Notes: a model not told the origin generated them from the sequence alone. A stretch of DNA of 58,640 nucleotides from an uncultured Candidatus Saccharibacteria bacterium (GCA_964423445.1 CAYREQ010000002.1:1-58640), one strand, 5' to 3'; positions 43,051-44,477 are shown, counted from the first letter of the stretch. Numbers and translations: made by a program.

Positions 43051-43056
43051 GTATAT

Positions 43057-43085
43057 TTGCATTAAAATTCTAGACGTGTTATAAT
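43057..43085 (+). promoter_or_regulatory. near-consensus promoter at start of pheT-gyrB island
   Basis: TTGCAT (43057-43062), 17-nt spacer, TG-n-TATAAT (43080-43085). Confidence 0.6.
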
Positions 43086-43213
43086 AAAAGAGTAAAAATG
43101 AGATCTATTCTATAGGTTTCTCACGTGACCCCAAAAGGGCCATTTTGTTCTTTATTGCTATTCTAGGGGAATAGCCAAGCACCAGGGTTTCTGGTAAATA
43201 GGAGAAAACGCCA

Positions 43214-43399
43214 ATGCATAATTCGAGTGGGGAAGCTCAGGCCCGAGCCTTGAGTAAAAATGAAGTTAAGCAAGGTGTCGTTGACATTATCGACGACGAA
43301 ACAAAGCCATCACCTGTATCGTTTCCCAACGACAGGGAAAAAGATAACGGGCATTATTGCTCATCAATAAACAGATGGGGAGCACCTGGATTGCTTTAA
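43214..43399 (+). CDS. small-ORF cassette 1 (61 aa, acidic)
   Basis: TAGGAG lies 10 nt upstream. '...KQGVVDIIDDETKPSP...REKDN...' resembles cassette 3. A +strand-specific terminator follows. Confidence 0.4.
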   Translation: MHNSSGEAQARALSKNEVKQGVVDIIDDETKPSPVSFPNDREKDNGHYCSSINRWGAPGLL

Positions 43400-43420
43400 T
43401 TCTCCAAAACATCTTGATAA

Positions 43421-43460
43421 GGGTCGTCGCGAAATATTCGTGGCGGCCCTTTTACTTTTT
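43421..43460 (+). terminator. +strand-specific intrinsic terminator
   Basis: 12-bp stem GGGTCGTCGCGA/TCGTGGCGGCCC containing three G:U pairs (would be C:A on the other strand), then TTTTACTTTTT. Confidence 0.75.
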
Positions 43461-43547
43461 CCACATTATATTTGTATATTTTTTCATATGTGTTATATTA
43501 AAAATATGAGTAGAAACGCCCAAATAAATAAAAGTTCAATTTGTTTT

Positions 43548-43661
43548 AAGCAAATTATTTGCTCTTCATTCTAGAAGACTGATATTTGCGCTGTAAAAAA
43601 ATTCAAAAGTTACAACCTAAATACCAGCCTTCTAGAAATAGAAGTCTGGTATTGTTCTTTA
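43548..43661 (+). repeat. repeated leader unit A (promoter-like region plus terminator hairpin)
   Basis: Aligns by eye with 44056-44166 with few substitutions and three 1-nt indels. Ends with hairpin ATACCAGCCTTCTA..TAGAAGTCTGGTAT plus TTGTTCTTTA. Confidence 0.8.
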
Positions 43662-43751
43662 TAGAGTTTGCTGTTTAAACTCTTTTCATCGGAAACTCCA
43701 CCTAGGAGTAAACAATGTTCCAGAAATATTCTGGAGAGGAGAAAAAAAGCA

Positions 43752-43934
43752 ATGTGTTTTTTGTCAGAAGATGACGACTGCCCCGAGCGTCGTAAAGACT
43801 GGGAAGCTCAAAAAAGGGCTTCGGTTCTAGCATCTCAAATTGCTCACAGATCAAAAGTTGTAAGCGAACCTGAAATTCAGCTTCAACAACGTGAAACAGA
43901 TCAATCGTCTAAAGAATCAGACGAAACAATCTAG
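43752..43934 (+). CDS. small-ORF cassette 2 (60 aa, acidic)
   Basis: MCFLSEDDDCPERRKDW... from an internal ATG with GGAGAGGAG upstream. A 19-codon SD-led uORF (43715-43774) precedes it in the -1 frame. Confidence 0.35.
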   Translation: MCFLSEDDDCPERRKDWEAQKRASVLASQIAHRSKVVSEPEIQLQQRETDQSSKESDETI

Positions 43935-44055
43935 CAATAGACATCAAGGGGAAAATCAAATTACGGGCTGTGCGAGATTCGTCACAGCCCAAAAATTCAA
44001 ACTTAAATTTAAAATGAAACAAAATATAAATACAAATAAAAATTTTACATTTACA

Positions 44056-44166
44056 AAGCAAATTTGTTGCTCTTCATTTAGAAGGCTGATATTTGTGCTG
44101 TAAAAATTTTCAAAAGTTACAACCTAAATACCAGTCTTCTAAAAAAGACTGGTATTTTGTTCTTTA
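44056..44166 (+). repeat. repeated leader unit B
   Basis: Second copy of 43548-43661. Hairpin ATACCAGTC..GACTGGTAT plus TTTTGTTCTTTA, then TAGGAG. Confidence 0.8.
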
Positions 44167-44181
44167 CTAGGAGTGTGAATT

Positions 44182-44352
44182 ATGTGTGATATGGATTATC
44201 CTTGGCCAGATATGACCAAGAAAGAAGTCGTGGTAGGGGTGGATGACACAGATTGTCCACCTAAAGAATTATCAAGTTCGGAGCCTGAAGAAAAAGACAA
44301 CAAACGAAAACCCGTCTCGGGTAAAAGAGAAAAACCGTACTTTGTGCGGTAA
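44182..44352 (+). CDS. small-ORF cassette 3 (56 aa, acidic then basic)
   Basis: TAGGAG lies 8 nt upstream. MCDMDYPWPDMTKKEVVVGVDDTDCPPKELSSSEPEEKDNKRKPVSGKREKPYFVR. A strong terminator follows. Below the track cutoff. Confidence 0.45.
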   Translation: MCDMDYPWPDMTKKEVVVGVDDTDCPPKELSSSEPEEKDNKRKPVSGKREKPYFVR

Positions 44353-44360
44353 ATCAAATT

Positions 44361-44394
44361 TGGGCTAGTGCTATGCACATGGCCCATTTTTTTT
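44361..44394 (+). terminator. intrinsic terminator after cassette 3
   Basis: TGGGC...GCCCA stem with an inner GTGC/GCAC pairing, followed by T8. Confidence 0.7.
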
Positions 44395-44477
44395 ACAAAT
44401 TTAGCCATAAAACCTATAAAATACAAGGTAAAATTGACTAGCTTATGCTATAAATTTTTGCTATAATATTACGATAT

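Follow-up and report, generated by a model that had tools for sequence, protein, structure and literature searches.

A repeated leader, likely a ribosome-mediated transcription attenuator, between pheT and gyrB in genomes of the Nomurabacteria/Paceibacterota

The window analyzed in this study is a stretch of 58,640 nucleotides (nt) from an uncultured bacterium deposited as Candidatus Saccharibacteria (CAYREQ010000002.1:1-58640), and the subject of this report is an island at 43051-44477 and the repeated leader that it contains. By its PheT homologs, the window belongs to Candidatus Nomurabacteria/Paceibacterota (Patescibacteria, candidate phyla radiation, CPR); the nearest PheT, at the locus L001, is 88% identical, and the rest range down to about 50%. 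The gene order is UPF0176 rhodanese, a 90-aa open reading frame (ORF), PheS, PheT, the island, GyrB, a P-loop kinase-like gene and threonyl-tRNA synthetase, the last two on the minus strand. The inter-operon region between pheT and gyrB holds three small-protein genes with their own regulatory leaders (cassettes 1, 2 and 3), and promoters, hairpins followed by TTGTTCTTTA, Shine-Dalgarno (SD) sites and terminators are all present. Comparison of related loci points to the leader shared by cassettes 2 and 3, rather than the ORFs of 56-61 codons, as the best-conserved element of the island.

With 1427 nt, the island is the longest gap in the window between ORFs of at least 120 aa, the second longest being 533 nt, as had been claimed in an earlier note on this DNA that was made from the sequence alone. 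The same note described the island as richer in G+C, which does not hold for the whole of it (0.358 vs 0.347 for the window) but does for the three ORF bodies alone (0.42-0.45); the leaders have 0.22-0.26. Strong SD sites in a genome mostly lacking them were likewise noticed earlier, and an SD 4-mer at -18 to -4 was indeed found before 1 of the 53 long ORFs of the window (at least 120 aa). In addition, a -10-like hexamer lies 5-8 nt before the start codon in 21 of the 53, which suggests that leaderless or near-leaderless mRNAs are the norm here. By these counts, SD sites are scarce in the host genome and its operons mostly begin with leaderless mRNAs. TAGGAG occurs in the island at 43199, 43703 and 44168 and is not enriched in the window (33 found vs 26 expected). 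The island alone holds three copies of TTGTTCTTTA, whereas 0.6 would be expected for the whole window.

Direct repeats 507-508 nt apart make up the leaders of cassettes 2 and 3, with 67 nt at 91% and 45 nt at 76% identity, so the shared leader reported earlier is real. In a BLASTN comparison of 80 PheT-carrying loci, more than 20 genomes, with PheT identities of only 55-88%, were found to share about 100 nt of leader at 72-93% nucleotide identity, and most of these copies lie 100-200 nt past the pheT stop. The consensus consists of TAGAAGGCTGATATTTGCGCTGTAA, a variable A-rich loop and TTACAACYCAAACACCAGCCYTCTA, followed by a short hairpin that re-uses CACCAGCC and by a U-tract. A covariance model of the leader, R1, was used for searches. 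In the window, R1 recognizes just the two copies, scoring 95.6 bits (cassette 2) and 95.5 bits (cassette 3) on the plus strand as opposed to 45 bits on the minus strand; in the fetched loci it finds 65 copies with 64-114 bits, and at least 65 leader copies are present in Nomurabacteria/Paceibacterota genomes. An exact 19-mer core occurs in 54 stretches of GTDB species genomes, about 48 of which lie in metagenome-assembled genomes (MAGs) of Nomurabacteria/Paceibacterota, several of these MAGs having 2-3 copies; these counts rest on the exact 19-mer, a 17-mer with N and Y being too unspecific (mostly chance matches). A metagenome scan with a 25-mer from upstream of gyrB gave no match. The leader, formerly read as an accessory of the small genes, is thus the best-conserved and most informative part of the locus, and the first reading had overlooked its two leaderless ORFs and the overlap of antiterminator and terminator described below.

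An Rfam covariance scan, proposed earlier as a check for a known structured RNA, matched no family to the island at gathering threshold; at E<=10 the only matches were to generic models of hairpins, most of them for microRNA precursors, and their scores fell well short of the thresholds. 6S RNA, SRP RNA, Y RNA, T-box and integron attC were rejected as candidates, since there is no Rfam match, the loop is variable, a leader ORF is present and no integrase lies nearby. A minus-strand reading, in which the A.C oppositions become G.U and GAGG with ATG stands past the hairpin, was also rejected: the minus strand has no conserved ORF, G-U pairs are abundant on the plus strand, the R1 scores are 95 vs 45 bits, and promoter and terminator lie on the plus strand.

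An extended -10 element (TGnTAnnnT) is found about 90 nt upstream of the hairpin in every copy, and ATG or GTG follows it after exactly 6 nt in 25 of the 30 copies scored and also in most copies of the wider set. In cassette 2, the promoter at 43472-43499 (+) has a -35-like TTGTAT and the extended -10 TGTTATATT (43491-43499), 6 nt 5' of the ATG of a 22-codon ORF at 43506-43574 (+; MSRNAQINKSSICFKQIICSSF). With this spacing, transcription would begin at or next to the start codon and the mRNA would be leaderless. The ORF ends with the UAG from which the hairpin's 5' arm starts, an arm carrying a stop codon in every frame. In cassette 3, the leader ORF has 29 codons (44014-44103, +; MKQNINTNKNFTFTKQICCSSFRRLIFVL), and its stop codon, UAA, lies at the top of the 5' arm. 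From the start codon to the hairpin base, the leader frame contains 0 stops in 580 codons over 30 copies, whereas the other two frames contain 46 and 60 stops and are open in just 1 and 2 of the 30 copies. The leader ORF is therefore held open by selection, and we infer that it is translated. The 60 distinct leader peptides have 17-33 residues (median 26 codons) and run into the hairpin 5' arm, which offers UAG, UGA and UAA, one per frame; 49 end at UAA (..RRLIFAL), 4 at UGA (..LEG) and 7 at UAG.

The hairpin formed by segments 2 and 3 of the leader (2:3) has 94.9% of its alignment cells paired and compensatory changes in 11 of its 21 pairs; none of 500 shuffles reached as high a value, and slid controls gave 35-54%. 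It lies at 43572-43634 (+) in cassette 2 (5' arm 43572-43596, 3' arm 43610-43634; -13.6 kcal/mol) and at 44079-44141 (+) in cassette 3 (-18.1 kcal/mol). Of 64 distinct copies, 63 have a single hairpin (median -16.4 kcal/mol, 11 bp) directly before at least 5 U in 8 nt, with a 5' arm that begins within the conserved 3' arm of 2:3, so that the long hairpin and this intrinsic terminator (3:4) are mutually exclusive. In the window, the terminators lie at 43620-43661 (+; stem 43620-43653, 14 bp, -16.7 kcal/mol, U-tract GTTCTTTA) and 44126-44166 (+; stem 44126-44157, 13 bp, -16.0 kcal/mol, U-tract TGTTCTTTA), overlapping the 2:3 hairpins of cassettes 2 and 3, respectively; in cassette 2, too, the terminator stem re-uses the antiterminator 3' arm. 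A putative third helix (1:2) would arise from the ORF sequence itself, in which the 5'-proximal AUACAGCGCAAAU and a CAGCCCUC-like stretch could pair with the hairpin 5' arm. Against shuffles, the family mean for 1:2 is z = -2.16, with z < -2 in 17 of 29 copies and z = -2.5 in cassette 3. The minimum-free-energy fold of the whole leader is 1:2 plus the terminator in both window copies. Moreover, the conserved A.C, C.C and C.A oppositions suggest that 2:3 is weaker than 1:2, as a default-terminating attenuator requires. Sequence comparison shows a promoter positioned for a leaderless start, an open leader ORF, mutually exclusive helices 2:3 and 3:4 with a putative third (1:2), a canonical terminator, a hydrophobic codon block at a suitable distance and an SD-led cargo.

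Those conserved non-Watson-Crick positions of the inner stem might alternatively belong to a binding site, with a protein or small ligand binding the irregular helix and choosing between 2:3 and the terminator, and an overlap of terminator and antiterminator is also usual in riboswitch expression platforms. Such a factor-dependent antiterminator is very unlikely, because no Rfam family matches even at E<=10, the apical loop is variable, and an always-open leaderless ORF that ends within the 5' arm in all three frames would have no role in it, while the mismatches are accounted for if 2:3 must be weaker than 1:2.

In the attenuator proposed here, which is modelled on classical attenuators and on the leaderless ilvBNC attenuator of Corynebacterium glutamicum (PMC11857589), the leader would choose between two folds. 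In the first, segment 1, within the ORF, would pair with segment 2, and segment 3 with segment 4 as the intrinsic terminator; this is the minimum-free-energy state. In the second, segments 2 and 3 would form the long antiterminator hairpin, and the terminator would be blocked. A ribosome at the stop codon would cover segment 2 and let the terminator form, and without a ribosome 1:2 would form with the same outcome. A ribosome stalled on a hydrophobic block of codons 4-9 codons before segment 2 would instead mask segment 1 and free segment 2, the antiterminator would form, and RNA polymerase would read into the SD-led ORF2 or ORF3. The leader of cassette 3 may be reached by read-through from cassette 2.

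The composition of the leader peptides agrees with this scheme. Hydrophobic residues make up 62-87% at codons -9 to -4 before segment 2, vs 12-32% at the other codons scored, and within this block 21 of the 60 peptides have at least three Phe, 11 at least three Ile and 6 at least three Leu. Furthermore, several copies precede amino-acid genes. A VFFFS leader (L005) is followed by chorismate mutase (CM_2, 1e-18) and prephenate dehydratase (PDT, 4e-40), an FFFF leader (L117) by an aminotransferase of the aspartate/aromatic type, a SYFFFS leader (L203) by an IlvE-type transaminase and a VVKKVTTKT leader (the second copy in L005) by aspartate-semialdehyde dehydrogenase. In six relatives, proB-proC is preceded by a sister family with this architecture, located 3-5 kb upstream of pheT (L009:1041-1149, L017:2349-2456, L014:2237-2341, L004:2691-2805, L002:2201-2315 and L044:3150-3261). 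Its leaderless peptide is M..KRKINSSPVPPSTNWVVGFCA (..SSPVPPS..), and its hairpin UGGGUGGUUGG..GGGCCACCCA overlaps a terminator that UUUUGUUCUUU follows; the genes after it match AA_kinase (1e-38) and P5C reductase. Model R1 finds no copy of the sister family in the window. Phe- and Pro-rich peptides before genes of the matching pathways are a signature of amino-acid attenuators.

These associations also bear on the idea that the leader ORF, being conserved, short, partly hydrophobic and part of a structured mRNA, encodes a small hydrophobic toxin or membrane peptide of 17-33 residues, similar to a type I toxin, with its own terminator. When compared with type I toxin-antitoxin systems, the leader has a hydrophobic block of about 6 residues followed by RR, which is under the length of a membrane helix, a C-terminus that is variable and shifts with the frame, and no conserved feature on the opposite strand, where no conserved ORF was found and no search for an antisense promoter was made. 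The composition of the codon block, moreover, follows the downstream biosynthetic genes in several copies. A toxin is therefore extremely improbable.

The leader is found most often in two arrangements, pheT-leader-small ORF(s)-gyrB, which is that of the window, and trpS-leader-small ORF-aspS, so both conserved homes lie just downstream of genes for aromatic aminoacyl-tRNA synthetases (aaRS). The arrangement trpS-leader-small ORF-terminator-aspS was seen in L246:141-1900, L247:599-2680 and about 15 other loci, with aspartyl-tRNA synthetases of the non-discriminating or bacterial type. The first SD-led ORF after the leader in L104, L221, L244, L173, L228 and L035 belongs to a recurrent family of 70-130 aa with the motif ..(E/D)WF..GR.(F/H)LTVP....LPCG(H/C).R...F.LRR...GW(V/I)H and without a Pfam match.

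Several observations weigh against the attenuator. At both of the commonest sites, the target of the leader is an SD-led small ORF with a terminator, not a biosynthetic gene, and the large gene after the small ORF has its own promoter. The two window peptides, ..SSICFKQIICSSF and ..FTFTKQICCSSF, show no clear single-residue run. In cassette 3, a clear -10 belonging to the leader ORF itself is missing at the canonical spacing of 6 nt, and the 1:2 pairing of cassette 2 is no better than shuffled (z = -1.1). All coupling of the leader to translation is inferred. Finally, the inner stem and the C-terminal RRLIFAL are stricter than a plain attenuator demands, which hints at a further constraint or function.

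Such a function might lie in the terminated leader RNA or the peptide itself, either of which could be the actual product, as a trans-acting small RNA or dual-function RNA comparable to rnTrpL/peTrpL (PMC6614838, PMC7298713), with read-through into the small ORFs secondary. The conservation beyond the needs of pairing (invariant inner stem, C/A-rich 3' arm, C-terminal RRLIFAL) would fit this, as would the default fold, which is the terminated form, and the fact that more than 40 genomes have kept the leader with only small variable ORFs after it. On the other hand, the stop position alters the peptide C-terminus in 11 of 60 copies (three stop positions), and the triple constraint of coding, 1:2 and 2:3 can account for the conservation. 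We regard a product acting in trans as unlikely to be the main role of the leader; it is, moreover, compatible with the attenuator and not exclusive of it.

Taking both sides together, the leader of cassettes 2 and 3 is likely to be a transcription attenuator that the ribosome governs through a leader peptide. By analogy with classical attenuators, it would be coupled to ribosome stalling and would sense an amino acid; the residues sensed are likely aromatic or hydrophobic for the family as a whole, and less clearly so for the two copies of the window.

The small ORFs behind these leaders were compared separately. Cassette 1 is a separate unit of promoter, structured 5' untranslated region (UTR), ORF1 and terminator, and is outside the attenuator family. 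Its promoter at 43056-43085 (+), with -35-like TTTGCA/TTGCAT and the extended -10 TGTTATAAT, had been reported before and was recovered in a consensus scan as TTTGCA-N18-TATAAT with TG; it is near-invariant across L001, L245 and L248. The 5' UTR (43086-43213, +) contains a hairpin at 43100-43120, a weak terminator-like hairpin at 43126-43142 with a U-tract at 43143-43156 that includes TTGTTCTTTA, two more hairpins (43157-43175 and 43182-43194) and the SD TAGGAG at 43199-43204. A mini-ORF of 5 codons in this region is not conserved, its ATG being gone in L001 and L248. In sequence comparison and with model R1, the cassette 1 leader showed no homology to the leaders of cassettes 2 and 3 beyond the U-tract. 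The earlier description of three cassettes, each with promoter, hairpin with U-tract, TAGGAG and terminator, is thus largely right in its features, while the implied relationship of the first leader to the other two does not stand. The cassette 1 intrinsic terminator at 43419-43461 (+), also predicted earlier, was found by scan as a 15-bp stem (43419-43451) followed by TTACTTTTTC, and the stem is maintained despite base changes in L001 and L245; the scan also recovered the cassette 3 hairpin with its U-tract at 44126-44157.

ORF1 (43214-43399, +; 61 aa) encodes a small acidic protein with the core GEAQARALS...IIDDET(K/R)PSP(I/V)SFP and the motif IIDDETKPSPISFP. Compared with L245, it has pS 0.81 and pN 0.20 (proportions of synonymous and non-synonymous differences), and its indels are in-frame; on this evidence ORF1 is a real gene for a conserved small protein under strong purifying selection. 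Homologs at the same locus are P0003 (L245, 63% identical), P0008 (L001), P0009 (L248) and P0012, four other assemblies carrying the family there, and P0009 links the N-terminal half of the window ORF1 to the C-terminal half of the L001 protein. An AF2 model of the family has low confidence (pLDDT 60, pTM 0.16), and the protein is predicted to be disordered.

In cassette 2, two conserved hairpins follow the terminator within 43663-43709 (+), at 43663-43683 and 43695-43709 (ACTCC...GGAGT). The second contains the TAGGAG of 43703, and in L001 its ACUCC/GGAGU has become ACCCC/GGGGU, a two-sided change; an ORF of 19 codons 3' of this TAGGAG has lost its ATG in L245. The copies of TAGGAG noted earlier are therefore correctly placed in each cassette, but the copy at 43703 is a hairpin arm and was rejected as the SD of ORF2, which uses GGAGAGGAG at 43733-43741. 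ORF2 (43752-43934, 60 aa; with its SD 43733-43934, +) encodes an acidic protein, and its start aligns with the positional ORF of L001. It is about 95% identical to P0007 of L245, with 3 synonymous and 3 non-synonymous changes and one in-frame 3-nt indel, and is probably a real, lineage-specific gene. After ORF2, a G+C-rich hairpin without a U-tract lies at 43965-43990 (+; GGGCTGTGCGAGATTCGTCACAGCCC); it is identical in L001, has one inserted base in L245 and is much better conserved than the adjoining ORF. In cassette 3, the SD TAGGAG (44168-44173) and ORF3 (44182-44352, 56 aa) span 44168-44352 (+). ORF3 is about 95% identical in L245, with 1 synonymous and 3 non-synonymous changes, too few for an informative dN/dS, and has a homolog, P0011 (L218/L249), at the same position (E = 1e-4); it too is probably a real, lineage-specific gene. 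A terminator-like hairpin with 8 T, read from the sequence at 44362-44394 (+) and conserved in L245, ends cassette 3 before the gyrB promoter.

The suggestion that the small ORFs are genes is thus supported by the purifying selection on ORF1 and by ORF2 and ORF3, which stay open in L245 with an in-frame indel; of the dN/dS comparison suggested earlier, the ORF1 part is informative. A direct tblastn search of the ORF1, ORF2 and ORF3 peptides against the 80 related loci gave no match, and a later profile search recovered the family of ORF1. The paralogy of the products of cassettes 1 and 3, also claimed earlier, was not recovered, as ORF1 and ORF3 gave no BLASTP alignment at E<=100; they are linked only through P0011, which matches ORF3 at the E value given above and ORF1 over 7 residues, and a weak motif, ..DD.D.P...S....EEKD.., common to the three appears in the multiple alignment only. 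Searches of Pfam, PHROGs and PADLOC gave no meaningful match for ORF1, ORF2 or ORF3, and no family for the ORFs 3' of the leader in other genomes, so the proposed antitoxin and anti-defence roles find no support there.

Compared with L001, the promoters, leaders and terminators are about 90% identical or more and cassette 3 is absent; the ORF bodies are nearly unalignable, yet open from the same start positions. Identity to L245 (L245:690-2145) is 98-99% in cassettes 2 and 3 and about 78% in cassette 1, where synonymous sites are saturated; the gene to the left differs, being PheS-like and on the minus strand in L245. This mosaic divergence and the different left flank indicate that the locus has recombined, inside the island as well. 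As a separate observation in some close relatives, a single 376-aa gene similar to phenylalanyl-tRNA synthetase replaces pheS-pheT at L249:1618-2748 (-), L250:1618-2748 (-) and L245:1-651 (-); it has the class II core and an FDX-ACB domain, the monomeric mitochondrial-like architecture, and is 34% identical to the PheS of the window.

On these data, the original proposal can be weighed, namely a foreign insertion of three paralogous small-ORF cassettes encoding regulators, antitoxins or anti-defence factors, with the leader a plain 5' UTR. The ORFs are indeed open, SD-led and richer in G+C than the leaders, purifying selection acts on ORF1, a homolog of ORF3 and the weak shared motif exist, and the payload ORFs vary among close relatives, as the near-unalignable ORFs and missing cassette 3 of L001 and the mosaic L245 show. 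However, the layout pheT-leader-small ORF-gyrB and the leader are vertically common to dozens of related genomes, the island has no phage or plasmid similarity and no Pfam, PHROG or PADLOC family, the paralogy is undetectable by direct comparison, and the conserved leader ORF and overlapping helices would be left unexplained. A foreign origin is not supported, and the proposal as a whole is quite unlikely. The other explanation offered for the SD sites, a special expression regime, fared better, since cassettes 2 and 3 stand behind the putative attenuators; small ORFs behind structured leaders in an otherwise leaderless, SD-poor genome would explain these sites.

A DnaA-box-like motif, TTTTCCACA, was observed at 43457-43465 (+), 28 nt upstream of the cassette 2 -10. 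TTWTCCACA occurs seven times in the window vs 1.5 expected (573-581, 616-624, 25279-25287 and 43457-43465 on the plus strand; 10339, 14164 and 28116 on the minus strand). The copies at 616, 25279 and 43457 end 28-29 nt upstream of a -10 hexamer that is itself 6-7 nt before ATG, and the motif has the same spacing upstream of the leader in 27 of 62 copies in other genomes. TTWTCCACA looks like a promoter-proximal factor site, and the window is not an oriC region. In addition, a candidate leaderless mini-ORF lies at 654-707 (TATAAT, 6 nt, ATG, 13 codons, MTFIRSKLKRFFY), 3' of two TTWTCCACA boxes and directly 5' of an MscS-like gene at 725-1420.

The attenuator would place leaderless translation in the service of regulation in SD-poor genomes. 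Its common control logic would join the residual amino-acid genes (chorismate mutase/prephenate dehydratase, proBC, aminotransferases) and the aaRS loci, and its main regulated cargo would be small, rapidly evolving proteins that annotation otherwise misses. Model R1, with at least 65 copies, provides a searchable RNA and peptide element. Annotation should call the leader ORFs of 22-33 codons and the small SD-led ORFs, and should treat the hairpin with TTGTTCTTTA after it as a terminator or attenuator. A further-reaching idea is that the chassis of RRLIFAL ORF, irregular helix and C/A-rich 3' arm constitutes a CPR-wide ribosome-directed regulon at aaRS genes (pheT, trpS, aspS), which would report the supply of aromatic or hydrophobic aminoacyl-tRNA and control fast-evolving disordered small proteins, with the RNA or peptide also acting in trans. 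This idea is speculative and improbable; if true, the regulon would give an episymbiont that makes almost no amino acids itself a new means of sensing those supplied by its host.

The mechanism proposed here is a textbook one, and the family itself is absent from Rfam and was previously uncatalogued; in the literature searched, no report was found of leader-peptide attenuation or riboswitches in Patescibacteria/Nomurabacteria. The classical attenuators of enterobacterial amino-acid operons are those of trp, pheA, pheST/pheM, ilvGMEDA, his, thr and leu. Like these, the family has a short leader ORF, segments that could form 1:2, 2:3 and 3:4 and include an intrinsic terminator, candidate regulatory codons at a distance where a ribosome stalled on them would mask segment 1, and Phe- or Pro-rich peptides before Phe or Pro biosynthesis genes in relatives. 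Unlike these, its leader ORF has no SD or 5' UTR, a single conserved hairpin chassis recurs at several loci of a genome while its codon block varies, most copies (both window copies among them) precede small ORFs and not biosynthetic operons, and the hosts are CPR/Patescibacteria whose leaders match no Rfam leader family. T-box leaders resemble the family in the choice between terminator and antiterminator beside aaRS genes (pheST, trpS, aspS). However, no T-box, specifier loop, stem I or Rfam match is present here, a leader ORF is part of the element, and the element follows pheT and trpS instead of preceding them.

The ilvBNC operon of Corynebacterium glutamicum has a three-hairpin attenuator with the leader peptide IlvL on a leaderless mRNA, in which the first hairpin blocks the leaderless start and permits termination (PMC11857589). 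A leaderless leader peptide and the series of anti-antiterminator (H1; putative in the present family), antiterminator (H2) and terminator (H3) are common to both systems, and in several copies here the transcript 5' end pairs with segment 2. The two differ in that they have no sequence relationship and have other targets, and the family described here is multi-copy and modular. In mycobacteria, polycysteine leaderless short ORFs act as cysteine-responsive attenuators and form a ribosome-directed regulon, or 'ribulon' (10.1101/834739). They share with the present family a leaderless sensory ORF at the 5' end of a polycistronic mRNA and several copies per genome, and a hairpin of cassette 2 also holds an SD-like TAGGAG. 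The mycobacterial ORFs control the next gene's ribosome-binding site, whereas a canonical intrinsic terminator is found here, and the window peptides contain 1-2 Cys in place of a polycysteine tract. The trpL attenuator of Sinorhizobium meliloti yields the small RNA rnTrpL and the peptide peTrpL (PMC6614838, PMC7298713) and is comparable as an attenuator whose terminated RNA and peptide could act on their own, which might be a reason for the strict conservation of the leader. That conservation, together with the retention of the leader beside small variable ORFs, leaves room for a trans function of the RNA or peptide in the Nomurabacteria/Paceibacterota as well.

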